NCBI GenBank assembly: GCA_000830295.1
Contig: CP010425.1
Coordinates: 640,001 to 704,000, forward strand
DNA from: an archaeon GW2011_AR15
GTDB lineage: Archaea; Nanobdellota; Nanobdellia; Woesearchaeales; GW2011-AR15
Length of the DNA: 64,000 nucleotides
Reading direction: 5' to 3'
Shown: positions 26,850-61,701 of the stretch, in pieces
Position numbering within the stretch: the stretch's first letter is position 1
Layout of the letters: each line of letters begins with the position of its first letter
Notes under the pieces: generated by a model
Told to the model about the DNA's origin: nothing
The model's database searches: none
Seen by the model: only the letters and a program-made list of their open reading frames with translations
Made by a program: the position numbers and the translations under genes

Positions 26850-29800
26850 ATGTCAAATATGGGAGAGAGGGTTTATAGAGGTGAATTAAAGGTTGTTCTC
26901 TTATTTCTTATATTTATATTTATGTTCCTTCAGACACCAGAATTTAGTTATTCTTTGACCTGTGGTGGAATAAATGATGGTTCAGAATGCTGGTCTGATC
27001 TGCAGTGCAGCGGTGGGGAAAAGTGTGTGCCCGCAGGAGGAGGACTCTGTAAATGTGCAAAAGACGATAGTGGCGGAGGAAATCCGCCCCCGCCACCACC
27101 GCCGCCACCTGTCTGCGGGGACGGCTCTGTAAACCAGGGATGGGAAGAGTGTGATGGCGGCACCAGCCCGTGCGGAGTTTTTGCATCAGGATGCTCGTCA
27201 TGCATATGCAGCTATTATAATGCTTCTCTAAAGAATCTTGCTGCAACAACCCCATGTGTAAGCAATGAGGCAAGCTCAAAGCAGTTTACTGTATCAGGAA
27301 GGAGCCAGTACTGCGGAAACATAAACATAACAGTCAATTACCAGGGGCAGAAGCAGTCCTTCGTGGTAACCGGCAGCACATATTCAGATTACACATTTAG
27401 CCATGTTTTTACAATCCCCGGCTCAGTTGCACTTCCCCCTTCCCAGCAGATAACAGTTGATATAAACGGCAACAGGAACCAGATAAAGAATGCAAAAGAC
27501 GGGGTGACCTATGACTGCTCTGAAACACTAGACCTTGATTTAACATATATGAACTTCTTTTATTGTCCGGACCCGGAAGAGAGCATCAATCAGAATATCT
27601 TTGACTTTTATGACGGAAGCAATTACTACACTTTCTACGGCGGGAACACAGAATACCAGTGGGATGAATGCGTAAGCAACCAGGCAACCACAGCATGCGC
27701 ATCCCAGCCAACATACTGTGTCATGACCAACGGAGGCCAGCGTGCTCCAAATACTGCAGTAAACGGGGATGGAGAGCCAGAGGTAGAAGTGTGCTATTCA
27801 ACAGCAGGGATACAGGGAGGATGGCTTGATGCTGATGTCAATGGGGCAACATGCAATCTTATCTCAGGCTCAAAATGGTTCAGCTGCTCAAACCCAAGCC
27901 AGTGCGAAAATGCAGTGGATGATTTCGACAGCAGCCCGGCAACAGGATTATGCTGCGGCGATGATGCAGTGGAGAATGTAAGGGAGACAAAATCAAAAAT
28001 AAACGGCCAGTATGTAAAAAATAATAACGGAACAGACAAGGTTTACTCAGCATGCTGCCTTGGCGGCCAGACATGCGTAGATGAATTCGGCACATGCAGG
28101 GGAGAAGGAGAGGATTACTGCACCTCAACAGGAGGCGTACGGGCCACCTGCACAGCAGGAGAATGGCAATTAACCCTGGATGACTCATGCCAGAGCGGCT
28201 GCGAGGTCTGCGATATAAACCAGGACGGGGAAGTGGATGAGATTGATATAACAGCTATAGACAACAACAAGGCACCTGCCCCATATGACCCTGTATATGA
28301 TGTCACGCAGGACGGGGAAGTGGATAATTCAGATGTTAATCTCTGCAGCAGCCTGAACCAGCTTGTGTGCTATACCTGCGGAGATAATATATTGCAATCA
28401 GAAGAGGCATGCGAAGAGGTCAACGGCAACCTGCAGTTCAACTGCGCTCAATATGTCCACAGCACAGACCCCAATAATTATACAGTATATCCAAGAATTG
28501 ACACCTGCACTACAGGGTTCTGCTCCTGCCAGTACGAGACAGAGCCTACATGCGACCTTGATGTATACTCAGGCCCTGGAGCATGCGAAACAGACAATGA
28601 CTGTTCAGGAAACCAGGTCTGCAACCCGGGCAGCTGCGGCTGTGTTGATTACATTCCGGGAGAAGAGCTTTCAGTGCATGTATATGATACAGACTGCTCA
28701 TACAGGTTCTGTGTGAGCGGGGACTCAACCAGCAGCCACAGTGTAGAGGGATATATAGAAACTGACACAAACTTTACCACATTTTCAACACAGTATTTTG
28801 ACAGCAACGACAATGTCGCAATTACTTCAGGAGATTCAAGGCTTGAGTTTGAAATCAATGTAGAAGGCGGAGAATCCTGCATTGTTTTTGACACAGACGG
28901 AAAAGTTGAGACAGACTTCACATATGACGGAAATGACCCGTCACTGGCAACAGTCTATTTTGAGCCTTCAGAAACCCATCCAGCAGCATTGCCATTTGAA
29001 TTCAGCACTTCTCCTACAAACACATGCAGGCTGTGCATACCAACCCAGGACACAGAAACTATTCTGGATGACGGCCTGGACAATGACTGCGACGGCATGT
29101 TTGACGAGCCTGAATTTGATGGATATGGGGCCTATTTATGGGAAGCAAACTGTGATTACTTCATGTGCGTATATGGTGATGATACACAGGATTACACAAC
29201 GTCAGGAGACGTGTCAGGGGAAGGCACATTTACAAGGCTAAGGGGCACAAGCTGGGAAGCTGAAGATTCATACAGCCTTAGCACAGGAAACCAGAGCCTT
29301 TCATTCAACTCAGAGCTTTCTTCAGGGGTTGACTGCCTGATATACAATTATGACGAGCTTGCTTCATACAATCTGGAACTTGAAGGCACAGGCGACAGGG
29401 AGAAGATATATCTTGACCAGAAAAAACAGAATCCATTTACAGAGCCGTTCCAGTATGCTGCTCCACAGTGCGCAATGTCCTGCGCACTTCCTGAAGAATG
29501 CGGAGACCCTTCAGTAATAGGCAATATTAACTGTGGCTATGAGATGTGTATATTTGACTGTGGAGGATACTGGGTTGATGAAACTTCAGTCTGGGACCTG
29601 ATGTTCGGAAACCAGAATCCAGGGGATTACTGCGAGACATGCGTACAGAACACCCAGTGCTCAGATTATACAAATGAAGAATCATGCTATTATGACTCAT
29701 GCAGTGCAGCATCAACATACTTCGGATGCAGCTGGAATGAGACATCACAGACCTGCGGGGATGCATTTAATGAATGCGCTCCTGGAGAGACACTGTGCAG

Positions 29801-31193
29801 CGACGGGACATGCAGCACTGATTGCGAGGAAATTGCAGGATGCATAGGTTCAGCAGACGGAGTCTGTGAGTCTGGAGAAGGCTGCGCCTGCTCTGACTGC
29901 CTCAATCAGACAGCAAGCTGCACAGCAGGAGCTGTCTGCGGTGAAGATGAGTTCTGCGGCTGCCCAATAGGAACTGCTTTATGCAGCGACGGGACATGCA
30001 GTGCAGAATGTGAAGAAAAAGCAACATGCATAGGAACTCCGGATGGAATCTGCCAGACTGGAGAAGGCTGCGCCTGCTCTGACTGCTATGTCACCCAGGA
30101 CAGCTGTGTCGAGGGAGCAATATGCAGCGGCATCACAGAATTATGCAGGGATATGGCAATAGGAGAATGCCAGCCGGGAACAACATTATGCAATGATTTT
30201 ACATGCGATCCAACATGTGAAGAGAATGGAGGCAAGAGAGGCTGCACAGGAGAGCCAAATAATATCTGCGAATTTGGAGAAGGCTGCGCCTGCTCAGACT
30301 GCAGCAGCCAGAAAGACAGCTGTGCCATTGGCTCAATCTGCAACACTGACACTCAATTATGTGAACCGTCTCCGGAAAACTGCATAGACAGCGATGGAGA
30401 CGGCTATTTCAGCCCTATTGAATGTTCAACAGGCAATGACTGCAATGATAATTCTGCAGCAGTGCATCCTGGAGTTGCAGAAACATGTGAAGATGGGGTG
30501 GATAATGACTGCAGCGGCCAAATAGATGATACATGTGTTTCCGGAGTAGAGATCAGTATCCAGGATCAGGACCCAATAAGAGTATTTGACTTAGTTGAGA
30601 TGAGATTATTAGTAAAAAATAATCTTAATGAAGATATAGATGCCTCAGTTACAACCGGCCTGCCGGCTGATGAAGTTGATAGGCAAAGCGCTTCTCTATC
30701 ACTGTCAGCAGGTGAGACAGAAGAAGTAACTTTCAATATATTTGTGAAAGATGTTGATGTAATCCCAACAGTGACACTAACAATTCCTGAGAAATCAGCA
30801 GAAGCATCCCAGGAGATAGCTTATGAAATAGAGATTCCAAGGTTTATTGTTGCGCCTGACCCAGAACACCTATATGGAGAAGAAGGATGTAAAGACTTCT
30901 ATTATGTGATTTATGAACCAGGGGAATTCGATATAGAAGTTAATATTATTAATCCGGAAGGGCTCTTAAGCAAGACACTATTTGTGGATTATATCAGCGG
31001 GGTAAATGTTGATAATATCTTCTTGGGGAAGATAAATGTACCTTACTGCCTTGGGGATAGGGACTTTGAAATCAGAGGGTATTTATACAAATCAACACCT
31101 GGTATAGTTGTGGATACAGTTACCTCAAGTATAACCCACGTTAACGACTTCAAAAAAGAAATAACAGTATCGGTGGATGTCAATAAAGTTTAA
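26850..31193 (+). CDS. Giant secreted Cys-rich surface protein with dockerin-like motif and MopE-type metal-binding repeats
   Basis: Signal peptide, poly-Pro linker, CGDG..EECD repeats, twin Ca-binding loops DINQDGEVDEID / DVTQDGEVDNSD, DNDCDG and DNDCSG motifs, three GEGCACSDC repeats, Ig-like C-terminus. Confidence 0.85.
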   Translation: MSNMGERVYRGELKVVLLFLIFIFMFLQTPEFSYSLTCGGINDGSECWSDLQCSGGEKCVPAGGGLCKCAKDDSGGGNPPPPPPPPPVCGDGSVNQGWEECDGGTSPCGVFASGCSSCICSYYNASLKNLAATTPCVSNEASSKQFTVSGRSQYCGNINITVNYQGQKQSFVVTGSTYSDYTFSHVFTIPGSVALPPSQQITVDINGNRNQIKNAKDGVTYDCSETLDLDLTYMNFFYCPDPEESINQNIFDFYDGSNYYTFYGGNTEYQWDECVSNQATTACASQPTYCVMTNGGQRAPNTAVNGDGEPEVEVCYSTAGIQGGWLDADVNGATCNLISGSKWFSCSNPSQCENAVDDFDSSPATGLCCGDDAVENVRETKSKINGQYVKNNNGTDKVYSACCLGGQTCVDEFGTCRGEGEDYCTSTGGVRATCTAGEWQLTLDDSCQSGCEVCDINQDGEVDEIDITAIDNNKAPAPYDPVYDVTQDGEVDNSDVNLCSSLNQLVCYTCGDNILQSEEACEEVNGNLQFNCAQYVHSTDPNNYTVYPRIDTCTTGFCSCQYETEPTCDLDVYSGPGACETDNDCSGNQVCNPGSCGCVDYIPGEELSVHVYDTDCSYRFCVSGDSTSSHSVEGYIETDTNFTTFSTQYFDSNDNVAITSGDSRLEFEINVEGGESCIVFDTDGKVETDFTYDGNDPSLATVYFEPSETHPAALPFEFSTSPTNTCRLCIPTQDTETILDDGLDNDCDGMFDEPEFDGYGAYLWEANCDYFMCVYGDDTQDYTTSGDVSGEGTFTRLRGTSWEAEDSYSLSTGNQSLSFNSELSSGVDCLIYNYDELASYNLELEGTGDREKIYLDQKKQNPFTEPFQYAAPQCAMSCALPEECGDPSVIGNINCGYEMCIFDCGGYWVDETSVWDLMFGNQNPGDYCETCVQNTQCSDYTNEESCYYDSCSAASTYFGCSWNETSQTCGDAFNECAPGETLCSDGTCSTDCEEIAGCIGSADGVCESGEGCACSDCLNQTASCTAGAVCGEDEFCGCPIGTALCSDGTCSAECEEKATCIGTPDGICQTGEGCACSDCYVTQDSCVEGAICSGITELCRDMAIGECQPGTTLCNDFTCDPTCEENGGKRGCTGEPNNICEFGEGCACSDCSSQKDSCAIGSICNTDTQLCEPSPENCIDSDGDGYFSPIECSTGNDCNDNSAAVHPGVAETCEDGVDNDCSGQIDDTCVSGVEISIQDQDPIRVFDLVEMRLLVKNNLNEDIDASVTTGLPADEVDRQSASLSLSAGETEEVTFNIFVKDVDVIPTVTLTIPEKSAEASQEIAYEIEIPRFIVAPDPEHLYGEEGCKDFYYVIYEPGEFDIEVNIINPEGLLSKTLFVDYISGVNVDNIFLGKINVPYCLGDRDFEIRGYLYKSTPGIVVDTVTSSITHVNDFKKEITVSVDVNKV
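29770..30360 (+). repeat. Three imperfect intragenic Cys-rich repeats
   Basis: ggagaaggctgcgcctgctc occurs three times and tgcagcgacgggacatgcag twice; protein unit C-x-x-G-x-x-LC-x-D-x-TC...GEGCACSDC. Confidence 0.8.
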
Positions 31194-31985: not shown

Positions 31986-32528
31986 TTACATTAAATTTCT
32001 TAATATATCTGTAAGGCTTGTTATTATAATAAGGTTGAATAGCAGATGTGAGCCAGCAAAAGTCAGTATTCTGGCAAAACTGCTTCCCATCATGAAATAC
32101 AGGGAAGAGGCTATCAGCTCATAGACAATTGTCAGGGCAATCAGAGAAGTGACCAAAGGAAGACCAATAAAAAGATTTGACAGCAGAACCACGGCAGTAA
32201 GCCCTATCACCGACACAAATGATGTATAGTTGAATTTTTGGCCAACAGCATCAGCAACAACCAGTCCCGCCCATCCTACGACAAGGGAGAGTATAATGTC
32301 CCTGTAGACAAAGGAGACCATCAGGGTTGTATAGAGCACAAGGTCAATCCCCAGACTGCTCTTGAAAAACCTGTGGTATATTTTTGACAGGCCTGCGGCT
32401 GCTATGAAAATAGCAGCAAAGAATATCTGCCTCAGCACGCCTGACATCAGGACGATGATAATAAAAATAAGCAGAATGACTCCTGTATTCCTGCTCTTCA
32501 GCTTTTTGAAGGTTTCTTTAAGGTCCAT
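31986..32528 (-). CDS. Multi-pass membrane protein, paralogue of 49378-49908
   Basis: About 5-6 TM helices; shared LGIDLV / YGLELV motif. Confidence 0.75.
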   Translation of the reverse strand: MDLKETFKKLKSRNTGVILLIFIIIVLMSGVLRQIFFAAIFIAAAGLSKIYHRFFKSSLGIDLVLYTTLMVSFVYRDIILSLVVGWAGLVVADAVGQKFNYTSFVSVIGLTAVVLLSNLFIGLPLVTSLIALTIVYELIASSLYFMMGSSFARILTFAGSHLLFNLIIITSLTDILRNLM

Positions 32529-32576
32529 GCACAGGTTTACTCTGGGGCTGTTTATATTAGTTTTGACATAATAACA

Positions 32577-32584
32577 TTTAAATA
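32577..32584 (+). promoter_or_regulatory. TATA box for the valS leader transcript
   Basis: TTTAAATA ending 23 nt upstream of the leader-peptide ATG, the spacing seen for leaderless genes elsewhere in the window. Confidence 0.6.
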
Positions 32585-32607
32585 TACTCTCCGCCTACTA
32601 TTTCCCT

Positions 32608-32652
32608 ATGTACTCAATCTGGAAAACACTGAGCGTAGTAGTGGCAAACTAG
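32608..32652 (+). promoter_or_regulatory. Putative valine-sensing leader peptide uORF (MYSIWKTLSVVVAN)
   Basis: ATG...GTA GTA GTG GCA AAC TAG; CTGGAAA (32619-32625) can pair with TTTCCAG (32653-32659); T-tract at 32664-32669; lies upstream of valS. Confidence 0.6.
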
Positions 32653-32746
32653 TTTCCAGCGGCTTTTTTCTTCTTATCAGAGAGATTCACATTACCTGAA
32701 GAGAAAGCTTTTTATTGAGAAAATTATAACAGAAGGGAAGAATAAT

Positions 32747-35143
32747 ATGGAACTGCCTCAGAGATACGATGCAAAAGAAGCTGAAGCCAAGTGGCAGAAG
32801 TTCTGGGAGAAAAATAAAATCTATGCATATAATGAAAAAGATAAGAAGAAAGAGACCTATTCCATAGATACTCCGCCCCCTACAGTCTCAGGCAGCATGC
32901 ATATCGGCCATGCTTTCTCATATTCACAGCAGGATTTTGTTGCCCGGTACAAAAGGATGAAAGGGTTCAATGTTTTCTATCCCTTCGGCACAGACGACAA
33001 CGGCCTTGCAACAGAGAAACTTGTGCAGAAAAACAGGAAGGTCAATCTGAGGAAAATACCAAGGACAGAAGCTATAAAGATCTGCCTTGAATTTCTGAAG
33101 GAAGAAAGGCCAAAATTTGTTCAGGACTGGAAAAACATAGGGATGAGCTGTGACTTTAGTGTGATGTATTCTACAATTGATGATATGTCCAGGAAAATAT
33201 CCCAGAGGACATTCCTTGAGATGGCCAAAAAAGGCCTTGCATACAGGAAAGAAGCACCAATTATATGGGATACGATGTTCCAGACTGCAATTGCCCAGGC
33301 AGAGCTTGTGGACAGTGAGATTGATTCCATTTTCAACGACATAGTTTTCAGGACAGAAGGCAGTGATGAGCTTATAATAGCCACTACAAGGCCAGAGCTG
33401 ATAGGTGCATGCGTTGCTGTTTTTGTGCATCCGAAAGACAAAAGATACAGGAAGCATGTCGGGAAGACTGCAATTACCCCGCTGTATAATGCAAAAGTCC
33501 CTGTCCTTGCAGATGAGAAAGTAAGCATGGAGAAAGGCACAGGAATAGTGATGTGCTGCACTTTCGGGGATCAGACAGACATTGAGTGGTATAAGCAGTA
33601 TAAGCTTCCCCTTAAGATGCTGATAAACCCTGACGGCACAATGAATGATGCAGCTGGCAGATACAAGGGCATGAAGGCAGATGAGGCAAGAAAAGCAACC
33701 ATAGAGGACCTGAAGCAGGCAAAACTATTGAAGAGCCAGAAGGCAATAAAGCATGTAGTGCAGATTGGCGAAAGGTCAGGGCAGCCTGTTGAAATAATAA
33801 ATTCAAAGCAGTGGTACATAAGCTATCTTGATAAGAAGGATATGTTCCTCAAGGCCTCTGAAAAGCTGGGCTGGTATCCAAAGCATATGAAGCACAGGCT
33901 TGACAACTGGATAAAAGGGCTGAACTGGGACTGGTCAATATCAAGGCAGAGGCATTTCGGCGTGCCCATTCCTGTATGGTATGACAAAACAGGGAAGATA
34001 TACTATGCAGATGAGTCCCAGCTTCCTGTTGATCCTGTTGCAGACAGGCCAAAGGGAGTTCCTGAGAAAGTGGATCTTATACCTGAAACAGATGTTTTTG
34101 ATACATGGTTCACTTCAGGCAGCTCGCCTTTCCTGGCGATAGAGCTCATGCCAAAGGAAACACAGGAAGAGCTGTTCCCTATGAGCCTGAGGCCGCAGGC
34201 GCATGATATAATCAATTTCTGGCTGTTCTATACAATGGCAAAGACACAGCTTATACACAGGAAAAACCCCTGGAAGGACGTCATAATCTCAGGCTGGGCA
34301 CTTGACCCGCACGGAAGAAAGATGTCCAAATCAAAAGGGAATGTAGTTGTGCCTCAGGATATGATACAGAAATATAGTGCAGATGCCCTGAGGTTTTGGA
34401 CAGCAGGCAGCAAGCTCGGGGACGACATGCCTTTCCAGGAGAAAGACCTTGTGACAGGGCAGAAGACAATAACCAAATTATGGAACGCCTCAAAGTTTGT
34501 ACTGATGCACCTTGAGGATTATAGATATGAAAAAGTCGAGCTGGAGATACTGGATAAATGGCTTCTTGCAAAGCTCCAGAAACTGGTTAAGAAGTGCACA
34601 GAGCATTTTGATGCATATGAATATTCAAAGGCAAAGCAGGAATTTGAGCTGTTTTTCTGGCAGGTATTCACAGACAACTATCTGGAGCTGGCGAAGGACA
34701 GGCTATATAATCCCGGGAAGTATAACAAGACCGCAAGGAAGTCAGCGCAGTTTGCCCTTTATGAGGCCCTGCTTAACCTCCTGAAATTAATAGCGCCGGT
34801 GATGCCTTACATAACCGAGGAGATATACCAGCTTTACTTTGCTGAAAAGGAGAAGGAAAAGAGCATCCATATCTCGCACTGGCCTGAATATTCCGAATCA
34901 TATATTGATAAGAATGCCGAGGAAACAGGGGACTTGGTTGTAGGGATACTACAGACAGTAAGAAAATTCAAATCAGAAAAATCCCTTTCACTGAAAGCAG
35001 AGCTGAGCTCAATAATAATCTCCTGTTCAGCATCACAAAGGAAAAAGCTTGAGCTTGTCCTGCAGGACATAAAAGCCATTACAATAGCAGAGGACATAGA
35101 GTTCAGGGAGAGCAAGGAATTCTCTCTTGAAATAAAAAATTAA
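32747..35143 (+). CDS. valS: Valine--tRNA ligase (archaeal type)
   Basis: IDTPPPTVSG, HIGH, GTGIVMCCTFGD, WDWSISRQR, KMSKSKGN. Confidence 0.97.
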   Translation: MELPQRYDAKEAEAKWQKFWEKNKIYAYNEKDKKKETYSIDTPPPTVSGSMHIGHAFSYSQQDFVARYKRMKGFNVFYPFGTDDNGLATEKLVQKNRKVNLRKIPRTEAIKICLEFLKEERPKFVQDWKNIGMSCDFSVMYSTIDDMSRKISQRTFLEMAKKGLAYRKEAPIIWDTMFQTAIAQAELVDSEIDSIFNDIVFRTEGSDELIIATTRPELIGACVAVFVHPKDKRYRKHVGKTAITPLYNAKVPVLADEKVSMEKGTGIVMCCTFGDQTDIEWYKQYKLPLKMLINPDGTMNDAAGRYKGMKADEARKATIEDLKQAKLLKSQKAIKHVVQIGERSGQPVEIINSKQWYISYLDKKDMFLKASEKLGWYPKHMKHRLDNWIKGLNWDWSISRQRHFGVPIPVWYDKTGKIYYADESQLPVDPVADRPKGVPEKVDLIPETDVFDTWFTSGSSPFLAIELMPKETQEELFPMSLRPQAHDIINFWLFYTMAKTQLIHRKNPWKDVIISGWALDPHGRKMSKSKGNVVVPQDMIQKYSADALRFWTAGSKLGDDMPFQEKDLVTGQKTITKLWNASKFVLMHLEDYRYEKVELEILDKWLLAKLQKLVKKCTEHFDAYEYSKAKQEFELFFWQVFTDNYLELAKDRLYNPGKYNKTARKSAQFALYEALLNLLKLIAPVMPYITEEIYQLYFAEKEKEKSIHISHWPEYSESYIDKNAEETGDLVVGILQTVRKFKSEKSLSLKAELSSIIISCSASQRKKLELVLQDIKAITIAEDIEFRESKEFSLEIKN

Positions 35144-47753: not shown

Positions 47754-48167
47754 TTAATGCAATCTCTCTATTTCGTGTTCAAGCAGGCTGCGGTAGACAT
47801 GAAATGCCACGTTCTGGGGAACCCCATTGAAAACATTCCTGAATTCCCGGGAAGGGTAGTACGGCCCTGAAAAATCCATGTCTAGAGACATTCTCCTGTA
47901 ATCTTCGCTGTCCGGTGGGCTGCGGGGATCATGCGCAGTCACTTCCCATTCAAGAAGCTTATGGCTGGGACTGAGTTCCCTTAATTTTGGGATGTCTGAA
48001 AAAACAATTAGGTTGATGGCAGATATTGCTTCAAGCCCCTGCACGCTTCTAAGAAACTTAAACGCCTCTTCATCCAGTTTAGGAAGCCCATATTGTTCAA
48101 GATGTTTTTCATAAGCACTGCAATAACTCTGATAGCCGTTGTCTTCTGCCATTTTCTTCTCTCCCAC
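47754..48167 (-). CDS. Hypothetical protein
   Basis: ORF with SD-like GAGGTG and TATA upstream; no motif recognised. Confidence 0.55.
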   Translation of the reverse strand: MGEKKMAEDNGYQSYCSAYEKHLEQYGLPKLDEEAFKFLRSVQGLEAISAINLIVFSDIPKLRELSPSHKLLEWEVTAHDPRSPPDSEDYRRMSLDMDFSGPYYPSREFRNVFNGVPQNVAFHVYRSLLEHEIERLH

Positions 48168-48254
48168 CTCTATGCCTGGAAAAAGAAATCTTTATTTAAA
48201 TACATTTTCAATATAACCGCCAGATTTAAATAAGAAAATCCCATTCTTTTCCGG

Positions 48255-58870: not shown

Positions 58871-59504
58871 ACTCTTACTTGCAGCAGCGGCAATACTTGT
58901 TTTCTTCATCATACTTTTTTCATCCTTGTTTTCCTACATCTACAACACCAATTACTACGACAGAAAATATCAGCAGCATGGTGTCTATGACCGGTTCACA
59001 AGGAAAACTGCACTAAATGCAACTGGAAACCTATTCGGATATTTCAGGTCAGAGAACCAGCTTGACATGGATTTTTTCAGTGAACAGGAGGCAAGCCACC
59101 TCAGCGATGTAAAGCAGCTGATACAGAAAAGCCAGCAGCTCTATTATATCAGCATAACCCTGTTCTGGATAGCCCTGGTTGCCGTGTACCTGCTCGCCAG
59201 GAAAAGCTTTATGAGATTCTTTGCAGACATGATGCTTTATTCCGGCATATTTGCTGCCGCCTTGATTTTAATCTTTTCTCTCATATACTTAGTGGGCGGA
59301 TTTGATTTCATCTTCATAAAGTTCCACGAAATATTTTTCACAGGCAACTATGCATTCAACCCGGCTACAAGCAACATGAAAGCATTATTTCCAGATGCTT
59401 TTTTCAGGGATTTGAGTTTAACGATTGTTTTTGTAACCTTCCTGAAGGCAGGATTGCTGGCAGGAGCGGGTTATTTTTTAAGAACTAGACAACTTCGCCT
59501 GTAA
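58863..59504 (+). CDS. DUF1461-type integral membrane protein
   Basis: FSEQEASHLSDVKQL, FIKFHEIFF, LFPDAFF. Confidence 0.85.
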   Translation: MRKLLLAAAAILVFFIILFSSLFSYIYNTNYYDRKYQQHGVYDRFTRKTALNATGNLFGYFRSENQLDMDFFSEQEASHLSDVKQLIQKSQQLYYISITLFWIALVAVYLLARKSFMRFFADMMLYSGIFAAALILIFSLIYLVGGFDFIFIKFHEIFFTGNYAFNPATSNMKALFPDAFFRDLSLTIVFVTFLKAGLLAGAGYFLRTRQLRL

Positions 59505-60948
59505 CGCTCCTCAGCATATGGTCGGTTATCTTCACGTTAAAAAATTCTTTTAATGGCAGCCTGCCCTTGATCCCCACTATCAGCGGATAAGTGCCTATCT
59601 GCCTTGCGAATGTTGTCTTGCCGTCATACATTTTTGTATAGACTTCCCTCATTATACTGCCTTTTGGAAGCAGTCGCTGGAGCATGGGAAAGTCAATCTT
59701 CTGCCTTATGTCATTCCTCCATTTCCAGTAATATCTCTTGTTTTTCCTCAGGTACTTGTTCCCGAACTTCTTTTCCATGTCTGTTCCCGGCAGTATGGCA
59801 GCCTGCCTTATATTTATACGGCGAAGCATCCAGCCGTTGTCATAGATTTCCTGCAATGCCTTCATGTTGCACTCATGCGTGCTTTTGGTCTCATGGCCGA
59901 GCCCGTAGATTATGTTTATCCCGGGAAGGAATTTCGGCATGCCGTTTGGCCCCCTTTCAGAGCCAAGCTCATTAAGGATTTTTATTGCCTTCATTGCTAC
60001 AGGGGGGGTTGTATTCAGGGTATTTTCTTTTACGACAACAGGGTCAAATGATTCCACGCCGAATGCCGCTATGTTGCCCTCAGTGCAGTATTTTACGACT
60101 GCCTTTGTCTTCTCGAAATCCTTGTCACCAACAACAAAAACAGGATTCACGTTGTCTATGTGCAGGACTTTGATGTCAGGGCATTTCTCCCTTATCTCTT
60201 TCAGCAGCCTTACAGGGTCTTCAATCGAGTAGAAATCGCTCTGCTTTCCAAGCCTGAAATACCTGCAACCCATGTCATAATATAATTTGATCTCCTCAAC
60301 AATCTCATCAGTTTTCCTGTTCAGGAATTTATTTTTTATAGGCTCTGTGCAGAAACTGCAGTGGCCGATATTGCATCCTCTGCCTGTCTCAATCTCAATT
60401 ATCCTGTAATCGGGAATCTGCTTTATTATCCCTGCGCCTTTTATTGCATACTCCTGCATCCTGAAAACACCGAATTCAAACCCAAAGTTTTTCACTTCGT
60501 CAAAAACGCTCATGTCTCCCTTCTCGAAAAACTTGCCGCCCTCGAGCTGAGTCCCGTAGATTCCGGGACCTGTAAGGATTTTCTTGCAATTTAATTTCTT
60601 AAGCAGGGGAGTTATCTCCCTCAGCGTCCCGGGGACTGCTGTAAGGTATTTGCCGGGCACGTGCACGCCGAGATTTACAATAAGCGTGTCTGTTTCATCC
60701 AGGATTTTCGTTATGTCCTTTCTCGTCAGGTTGTATATCCTTATGTTGGTCTTGTCTTTTCCAGTCACTTCTTTTACTTTGTTGCCGTAAATCATGTTCA
60801 GCCTGAGGTCATCTATTGTGATGTATTTTGGGTCATAGCCTTTTGATTTCAGGATGCCGAAGATGTATCTCGGATAAGTCCCGAGATAAGGAGGCACGCC
60901 CAAGCCTGCTGCCTCATCAGTATAGCAGTCAAGTATTGTGTAGTTCAT
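59485..60948 (-). CDS. Archaeal radical SAM protein with TRAM-like C-terminus
   Basis: YTDEAAGLGVPPYL, ETGRGCNIGHCSFCTEP, LHIDNVNP, LRRINIRQ, ARQIGTYP; likely start MNYTILD at 60948. Confidence 0.9.
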   Translation of the reverse strand: MNYTILDCYTDEAAGLGVPPYLGTYPRYIFGILKSKGYDPKYITIDDLRLNMIYGNKVKEVTGKDKTNIRIYNLTRKDITKILDETDTLIVNLGVHVPGKYLTAVPGTLREITPLLKKLNCKKILTGPGIYGTQLEGGKFFEKGDMSVFDEVKNFGFEFGVFRMQEYAIKGAGIIKQIPDYRIIEIETGRGCNIGHCSFCTEPIKNKFLNRKTDEIVEEIKLYYDMGCRYFRLGKQSDFYSIEDPVRLLKEIREKCPDIKVLHIDNVNPVFVVGDKDFEKTKAVVKYCTEGNIAAFGVESFDPVVVKENTLNTTPPVAMKAIKILNELGSERGPNGMPKFLPGINIIYGLGHETKSTHECNMKALQEIYDNGWMLRRINIRQAAILPGTDMEKKFGNKYLRKNKRYYWKWRNDIRQKIDFPMLQRLLPKGSIMREVYTKMYDGKTTFARQIGTYPLIVGIKGRLPLKEFFNVKITDHMLRSVTGEVV

Positions 60949-61002
60949 TGTTACCAGAGAAATATGGATAGTTTTATAATTTATTGGAAAAATATCAAGC
61001 AT

Positions 61003-61701
61003 ATGATTTCCATTGTCATTCCCACGCTGAACGAGGGGAGATACCTTCCAAAGCTGCTCGGGTCCATAAAAAAGCAGACCTATAAGGATTATGAGCTCAT
61101 TGTGTCTGACAATTTTTCTAAAGACAATACAAGAAGAATAGCGAAGAAATACGGCTGCAGGGTTGTTGACGGAGGACTGCCCGGGAAGGCAAGAAACAAC
61201 GGCGCAAAGGCAGCGAAATATGACCTGGTGTTTATTGATGCTGATATAGTGCTGGCTGATAAAAGCTTCCTGAAAATATTTCTTGAAAAAATAAAAAAAG
61301 AAAACCTGGACATAGCGACGTGCAAGGTCCTGCCTGATTCCGGCAGACCGGATTACAGGTTCTATTATTTCCTGAAAAACTGGTTCAATAAAAATAATCC
61401 AATGAGGCATATCTCAGGCCAGTGCTTCTTCATAAAAAAAGAATTGTTTGAGAGCATAGGCGGATATGACGAGACCCTCCAGCTTGGAGAGGAGCATGAC
61501 CTTGTAAGGAGGGGGCTGAAGCACAAAGCCAGGTATAAATTTCTTGCCGGCCATTCTGTAATCAATTCAACAAGGCGGCTTGAGAAAGAGGGATTCTTCA
61601 GGCTGCTGTTCAAGTCCGCCTGCTCTGAGCTCTATGCAGTATTTTTCAGGAAGATAAAGAGAAAGCTCTTTGATTATGAGTTCGGAAATTATCAAAAATA
61701 A
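61003..61701 (+). CDS. GT2 glycosyltransferase
   Basis: ISIVIPTLNE, ARNNGA, FIDAD, IGGYDE. Confidence 0.92.
   Translation: MISIVIPTLNEGRYLPKLLGSIKKQTYKDYELIVSDNFSKDNTRRIAKKYGCRVVDGGLPGKARNNGAKAAKYDLVFIDADIVLADKSFLKIFLEKIKKENLDIATCKVLPDSGRPDYRFYYFLKNWFNKNNPMRHISGQCFFIKKELFESIGGYDETLQLGEEHDLVRRGLKHKARYKFLAGHSVINSTRRLEKEGFFRLLFKSACSELYAVFFRKIKRKLFDYEFGNYQK

Follow-up and report, generated by a model that had tools for sequence, protein, structure and literature searches.

Leader-peptide attenuation is a textbook form of control via coupled transcription and translation and is taught as a bacterial one, its classical representatives being the trp, his, leu, thr and ilv leaders and, among aminoacyl-tRNA synthetases, the Phe-rich leader attenuator of E. 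coli pheST. T-box riboswitches, which are untranslated and have a conserved fold, likewise place a synthetase gene under cis control by the charging state of its tRNA. Archaea also couple transcription and translation, but terminate differently: the archaeal polymerase terminates at U-tracts and a hairpin is not needed, so that the rules of coupling may differ from those of bacterial attenuators. The described system nearest in anatomy to the locus reported here is that of the mycobacterial polycysteine leaderless short ORFs, at which ribosome stalling is reported to unfold a structure that conceals the following ribosome-binding site, with several loci in the same genome answering to one amino acid (bioRxiv 10.1101/834739). 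As for archaea, ribosome profiling in Haloferax reports upstream small frames without an attenuator function (PMC7261190), and the uORF4u paper remarks in general terms that gene regulation by upstream frames extends to archaea (PMC10219788). No archaeal leader-peptide attenuator was found described in the full-text literature searched, the coverage of which stops short of subscription journals.

The window analyzed here is a stretch of 64,000 nt from the genome of the uncultured archaeon GW2011_AR15, a single 1.16-Mb contig from which 1183 crude genes were used in the scans. Within the window, the valine--tRNA ligase gene valS is separated by a gap of 218 nt from a divergent gene (31986-32528, minus strand) that has no match in Pfam or NCBIfam. 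The gap and the gene behind it present the following features, all on the plus strand.

32577-32584, plus strand: promoter P1, the leader TATA box, matching the consensus at 8 of 8 positions
32608-32652, plus strand: upstream frame (leader peptide), by translation 14 codons and a TAG stop (32650-32652)
32635-32643, plus strand: three consecutive Val codons (codons 10-12 of 14), the presumed sensor
32619-32659, plus strand: hairpin H1, with 7-nt arms at 32619-32625 and 32653-32659
32664-32675, plus strand: U-rich tract, within a U-rich stretch at 32661-32675
32661-32709, plus strand: hairpin H2, with a U-rich 5' arm (32661-32673) and a purine-rich 3' arm (32698-32709)
32709-32716, plus strand: second U-rich or TATA-like element (6 of 8 positions of the box matched), a weak proximal promoter P2 or else a terminator tract behind H2
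32747-35143, plus strand: valS, valine--tRNA ligase (NCBIfam, 1034 bits versus a cut-off of 738; Pfam tRNA-synt_1 and Anticodon_1)

The small frame opens with a start codon at 32608, at a distance of 31 nt from the first base of P1. Valine is confined to codons 10-12 of this frame, so that the cognate codons are enriched near its end. The loop of H1 contains the Val codons and its 3' arm begins directly past the stop, while H2 comprises 12 pairs in the best fold of the window leader and includes the U-tract in its 5' arm; U-rich tracts are present after both hairpins. The element at 32709-32716 begins 38 nt before the valS start, against a usual spacing of 30-32 nt. An earlier note on this DNA had pointed to a TATA box at leaderless distance from a 14-codon frame whose sole valines are three consecutive codons near its end, to pairing of that frame with the sequence just past its stop, to a U-tract and to a valyl-tRNA synthetase as the next gene, and all of these elements were recovered as listed. 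A scan of the plus strand from 32000 to 33200 against sigma-70 and terminator consensus sequences, bacterial in its design, returned no terminator-like site, and an Rfam scan of 32400-32900 (E up to 10) returned five unrelated chance matches, all far under their gathering scores, the best of them at 16 bits versus 50.

In its layout the locus resembles the leaders of E. coli pheST and of the amino-acid operons, with a short frame in the 5' leader, a cognate codon run a few codons before the stop, hairpins around and past the stop and U-rich tracts before the structural gene; as with pheST, the target gene is a synthetase, here valS. Unlike the bacterial attenuators, it belongs to an archaeon (a DPANN member with Woesearchaeota-type relatives), its small frame is leaderless, and no mutually exclusive terminator/antiterminator pair was found in the valS leaders. 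With the mycobacterial polycysteine ORFs it shares the leaderless short frame and the run of one codon type. It differs from those bacterial ORFs in that H2 does not cover the valS start region and in that different amino acids appear to be sensed at different genes. The cis control by tRNA charging proposed here would be akin to that of the T-box riboswitches, in contrast to which the valS leader has no Rfam match and its frame is, in the proposal, translated.

The start of the small frame is placed exactly like a gene start of this genome, 31 nt past its box. Across the whole genome, 96 perfect TATA boxes lie 30-32 nt before gene starts, which is the modal spacing, and it is this accumulation that suggests that the genome mostly uses leaderless mRNAs. 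The promoter of valS was assessed at valS loci with a well-defined start, a strong TATA box being defined as 7 or 8 of 8 matches at 28-33 nt. Such a box precedes the valS start at only 1 of the 12 loci with a leader (about three of these 12 being repeats of the same species) versus 44 of the 64 loci without one; hence, the canonical promoter at leader loci precedes the small frame rather than valS. Co-transcription of the small frame with valS is the probable consequence, judged from sequence, the 20 sequencing runs listed for the locus being all of DNA. A caveat of the earlier note had been that a second TATA-like tract could drive valS directly. The element is indeed present (32709-32716), but the caveat is weakened by the near-absence of strong canonical boxes at leader-bearing valS genes. 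In two relatives the element behind H2 resembles a TATA box and not a U-tract, and it also occurs, at the same place, before valS in a same-genus genome without the leader (L040), so that a weak proximal promoter at valS is possible. A Shine-Dalgarno-like sequence before valS was considered as proof of an upstream start and set aside as weak, since a sequence of this sort is also present at leuS of the genome, downstream of the TATA box that belongs to leuS and ahead of the leuS start.

The DNA upstream of valS was examined in 40 related species genomes, labelled Woesearchaeota, Nanoarchaeota or Pacearchaeota in public records. Among the 20 genomes of the family, the one analyzed here included, an intact TATA-positioned Val-run frame precedes valS in 11, with a single Ile or Leu interrupting the run in three of them. 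In one further genome the leader RNA is kept but its frame is broken, in seven no leader was found before valS, and in one the 5' end is missing. The earlier note had made its reading depend on the conservation of the frame and of its Val run, and both are kept in these 11 of 20 genomes. The small frames before valS in the family span 9-14 codons, at a valS protein identity of about 60% across the family and of 64% for the nearest of these genomes. Outside the family but within the same order, a leader is found in 1 of 21 genomes and is differently built. A leader is present at 4 of 73 valS loci of the genome collection, two of which repeat family genomes and one of which has no TATA box at the right distance, and at 2 of 65 metagenome loci, one repeating a family genome and the other being the closest relative found (valS 74% identical). 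In this closest relative the TATA box, the frame with its Val run and the H2 core are retained, whereas the arms of H1 are not.

All 14 accepted Val-run frames have their TATA box 30-31 nt upstream, with 8 of 8 matches in 13 of them and 7 of 8 in one. The third bases of their Val codons vary freely, the four codons being used 21, 19, 13 and 5 times, as expected if selection acts on the valine codons and not on a particular string of nucleotides. In 11 of the 12 family leaders the frame runs without interruption to a stop at a fixed place, and within the genus the peptide shows moderate conservation in its N-terminal half. A covariance model of the leader has one match per genome, always before valS, in its 10 source genomes, and no match elsewhere in the family. 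Val-run upstream frames precede only two of the 1183 crude genes of the genome. Because the Val-run frame and its TATA spacing recur before valS in relatives, the arrangement is judged on this comparison to be more than chance.

Runs of this kind are also found before other genes. The genome holds 44 TATA-positioned small frames, seven of which contain runs of at least three identical residues, and four of these seven precede a gene tied to the same amino acid (Val, Ile, Tyr and Phe). All four cognate frames end in TAG, a codon that ends 291 of the 1183 genes. The three besides the valS leader, together with thrS and its small frame, are as follows.

G000:C1:936785-936826: Ile leader, leaderless, 13 codons, ending in four Ile, before ileS (936911-940048)
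G000:C1:241553-241603: Tyr leader with four Tyr, before a phenylalanine 4-monooxygenase-like gene (241648-242451)
G000:C1:165204-165248: Phe leader with four Phe, before a three-gene row (165371-166809)
1076382-1078328, minus strand: thrS, with a small frame from G000:C1:1078458 downwards that has only two Thr

The identity of ileS follows from Pfam matches to tRNA-synt_1 (4.8e-116) and DUF5915, the NCBIfam ileS model being matched only indirectly. The hydroxylase-like gene matches Pfam Biopterin_H (6e-41) and reaches 204 bits in NCBIfam, under the model cut-off of 247; it was found in this genome only, among 41 genomes searched. Phenylalanine 4-monooxygenase makes tyrosine from phenylalanine, and pterin-4a-carbinolamine dehydratase is the cofactor-recycling partner of phenylalanine hydroxylase. 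The third gene of the row behind the Phe leader is such a dehydratase (Pfam, 2.6e-31). The two genes upstream of it in the row are unknown genes, the first without any Pfam, NCBIfam or Atlas match.

The pairing of run and gene extends to relatives. In 29 ileS upstream regions (own genome included), 13 Ile runs and no Val runs were found; under the same strict rule, 40 valS upstream regions gave nine Val runs and one Ile run. A TATA-positioned frame with at least three consecutive Thr precedes thrS in 13 of 30 upstream regions, and five more of the 30, that of the present genome among them, have two or three Thr in the last eight residues. The thrS leaders of relatives (loci L183-L211) are leaderless and end in 3-8 Thr codons. 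Within the genome itself, 15 synthetase-like genes were located by five Pfam families (two of the matches being weak, and four further synthetase families lying outside the search), and only valS, ileS and thrS among them have a TATA-positioned upstream frame with cognate codons. Cognate-codon frames at other synthetase genes, which the earlier note had suggested to look for, are present at ileS (13 of 29 regions) and at thrS (13 of 30). With cognate mini-genes at several amino-acid genes, the arrangement resembles the gauges by which bacteria read amino-acid supply through the ribosome.

The valS and thrS leaders have in common an 8-nt motif directly past the stop region, followed by a U-rich stretch, and the motif is absent from the ileS leaders of the family. 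As a general terminator the motif was dropped: genome-wide, motif and T run together give 8 matches versus 7 for a reversed control, and are not enriched. Three further TATA-positioned small frames were noted, one at G000:C1:1135971 with two Pro, before proB (1136075-1136905, glutamate 5-kinase), one at G000:C1:1079699 with three Pro, before a gene for an Lrp/AsnC-type regulator, and one at G000:C1:288384 with alternating Asp and Asn, before the gene for PEP carboxylase. These could be more sensors, or chance.

RNA structure was compared with dinucleotide shuffles. The H1 region of the window folds at -8.8 kcal/mol versus -12.2 +/- 2.7 for the shuffles (z +1.25), with 185 of 200 shuffles folding at least as well, and the 146-nt window leader as a whole (z +1.07 in one run and +0.1 in another) folds no better than its shuffles. 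The ten family leaders of the window type reach a mean z of -2.0, seven of them at -2.1 or lower. Their best folds present an H1-type hairpin over the Val run in 9 of 10, with its 3' arm at or just past the stop, and H2 in 10 of 10; in single sequences, H1 or H2 is each matched by 5-22% of shuffles. The sequences of the H1 arms vary between genomes, and two genomes have changes in both arms of H2. Counted column by column in a model-fitted alignment, the covariation of the two hairpins was not significant, in a small sample with registers that shift between genomes: 80.3% of cells are paired versus 78.6% in shuffles, with 4 double changes versus 2.1, and 66 of 500 shuffles score as high.

H1 and H2 coexist in the best folds as adjacent rather than alternative structures, and no antiterminator pairing was found in leaders folded with or without a masked ribosome footprint; on these two grounds, the classical three-hairpin switch is absent. 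Footprint masking was applied to nine family leaders, the broken-frame tenth being skipped, and H1 forms in all but one of the nine. With the first Val codon in the A site, the ribosome removes H1 entirely in 6 of 8 leaders, and with the last Val codon there in 5 of 8; at either position H2 stays largely intact in 9 of 9, and masking at the Val codons gives no replacement for H2, so that mutually exclusive terminator and antiterminator structures are absent here as well. A ribosome at the stop codon removes H1 in 8 of 8 and some or all pairs of H2 in 6 of 9. H2 begins 0-14 nt past the first base of the stop codon and ends 38 nt before the valS start in the window and 20-90 nt before it over the window and nine other family leaders, in all of which it excludes the ribosome-binding region of valS.

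The sensor codons are part of structures in the other leader classes as well. Among 14 best folds of ileS leaders, 9 have at least 6 nt of the Ile run paired to a segment past the stop. A stem of at least six consecutive pairs with the stop codon in its loop is present in 6 of 17 thrS leaders, versus 4.8% of 1183 ordinary stops; consensus folding of the thrS stop regions from a plain alignment gave no structure, their loop lengths differing. There are two valS leaders of a second type in which the stop hairpin has the Val codons themselves as its 5' arm, and in one of this type, from another family (L018), a second hairpin pairs with the Shine-Dalgarno sequence. In the Tyr-run leader of the present genome, the second hairpin extends exactly as far as the region of the hydroxylase start.

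Taken together, these data separate the two halves of the ribosome-mediated attenuation proposed in the earlier note. The sensing half gains from the comparison, through the conserved leaderless Val-run frame and the cognate runs at ileS, thrS and two aromatic loci, and a leader-peptide sensor is, at the level of sequence, well supported. The output half, a putative ribosome-controlled terminator made of hairpin and U-tract, fares less well, with H1 lost in the closest relative, covariation not significant and no antiterminator found; the output step would be partly at odds with the classical model.

The reading preferred here, to which we assign a probability of roughly 0.6, is that the leaderless frame encodes a leader peptide through which charged tRNA-Val is sensed and valS is controlled in cis, probably via premature termination. 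The layout, its conservation, the match of run and gene at several loci and the missing canonical promoter at valS are observed; from these features we infer that the frame is translated, that ribosomes stall in it, which way the control runs and that termination is the step under regulation. Transcription would start from P1 at the start codon of the small frame, yielding a leaderless mRNA, so that the small frame would be translated from the very 5' end of the valS transcript, with its three Val codons gauging the supply of charged tRNA-Val. At low supply, the first ribosome would stall at the Val codons; at ample supply, it would get to the stop and leave. The position of the ribosome would set the folding of the RNA just behind the polymerase, and that fold would decide whether the polymerase stops at the U-rich tract or tracts between the small frame and valS or reads through. 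In the variant thought most likely, H1, which ends 4 nt before the U-tract, favours termination, and a stalled ribosome would block H1, so that valS is made when valine charging is low. This variant is put forward because it keeps the expected logic, with more synthetase at low charging and more Tyr-making enzyme at low Tyr. H2 might act as a second stop, as a stabilizer of the read-through RNA, or be the RNA shadow of the proximal promoter. At the scale of the lineage, the balance tips slightly towards a set of ribosome-read gauges run by these DPANN archaea, in which leaderless Val-, Ile-, Thr-, Tyr- and Phe-run mini-genes precede matching genes (three synthetases and two Phe-to-Tyr parts) and would work via archaeal, hairpin-independent termination rather than a bacterial terminator/antiterminator switch.

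Other readings of the locus draw on parts of the same evidence. Translational attenuation of the mycobacterial type, in which a stalled ribosome exposes a sequestered ribosome-binding site, is the mechanism of the closest published analogue (bioRxiv 10.1101/834739). The pairing of the second hairpin with the Shine-Dalgarno sequence at L018 and the end of that of the Tyr-run leader at the hydroxylase start region are consistent with it, but in the ten family leaders H2 stops 20-90 nt short of the valS start, without its ribosome-binding region, and is not opened by a ribosome at the Val codons, which makes this mechanism unlikely at valS. If H2 were the terminator, the control logic would be the opposite of that proposed, since it is the ribosome at the stop, and not at the Val codons, that disturbs it: a ribosome at the stop would disturb H2 or push the polymerase through the U-tract, and valS would be read when charged tRNA-Val is plentiful and turned off on stalling. 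The position of H2, 0-14 nt from the first base of the stop, and its loss of some or all pairs with a ribosome there (6 of 9), with few or none lost at the Val codons, fit this inverse logic; it would, however, amount to positive feedback for a synthetase, would switch on the Tyr-making hydroxylase at plentiful Tyr, and is contrary to all known synthetase leaders (E. coli pheST, T-box genes), so that we regard it as highly improbable.

A division into two units, with valS transcribed mainly from 32709-32716 and a short P1 transcript ending at the U-tract, would leave to the small frame an indirect effect (promoter interference) or an inducible read-through over a basal level. It carries about the same low probability as translational attenuation. 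The element at 32709-32716 is similar to the P1 boxes and has in front of it a purine-rich stretch reminiscent of a factor B recognition element, it stands at the same place in the leader-free same-genus genome L040, and TATA-like boxes are also found behind the leaders of thrS and ileS. The spacing between the element and the valS start, however, ranges from about 31 to 90 nt, the 8-nt untranslated leader that it would give in the present genome would suit neither leaderless nor Shine-Dalgarno initiation, a strong box at canonical distance is found at 1 of 12 leader-bearing valS genes, and independent units leave the retention of the Val run beside valS unexplained. That the frame has no regulatory role, and is a chance frame or encodes a small hydrophobic peptide with a function of its own, has very little probability: the frame is short in the present genome alone, the window hairpin is no better than chance and the peptide has a moderately conserved N-terminal half in the genus, but the Val run is maintained while its codons change synonymously, the repeated amino acid fits the downstream gene at valS, ileS and thrS, and peptides of 9-14 residues are too short for a membrane span. 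The slightest chance of all is given to a T-box-like RNA that binds tRNA and reads uncharged tRNA-Val directly, without translation; H1 does display the Val codons in its loop, but the best Rfam match stays at 16 bits versus a gathering score of 50, TATA box and start codon keep the fixed leaderless spacing, and in 11 of 12 family leaders the frame continues unbroken to its fixed stop.

Were such a lineage-wide set of gauges to be confirmed, leader-peptide attenuation would be no bacterial speciality, and the valS and thrS leaders, with their common motif past the stop, may derive from one another by a change of the codon run. A conserved set of cognate leaders in an organism with about 1180 genes would show that minimal symbiotic archaea sense the charging of single tRNAs and that archaeal termination can be steered by the ribosome, and it would give a defined sequence on which to test this steering. 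Short frames of this kind would then deserve a search in the annotation of archaeal genomes, where they go uncalled.

Several minor observations concern valS and the remainder of the window. The valS match is split at about residues 231-236 of the query, within a single open frame, in six relatives (G002, G003, G009, G010, G028 and G034), which suggests an insertion of some tens of residues. The stretch 26850-31193 (plus strand) encodes a protein of 1447 residues whose sole Pfam match is a short putative metal-binding (MopE) motif. Two small frames with three Phe and a TATA box nearby are found on the minus strand of the window, one at 48205 before an unknown gene (47754-48167) and the other at 61497 before a radical SAM gene (59485-61410).
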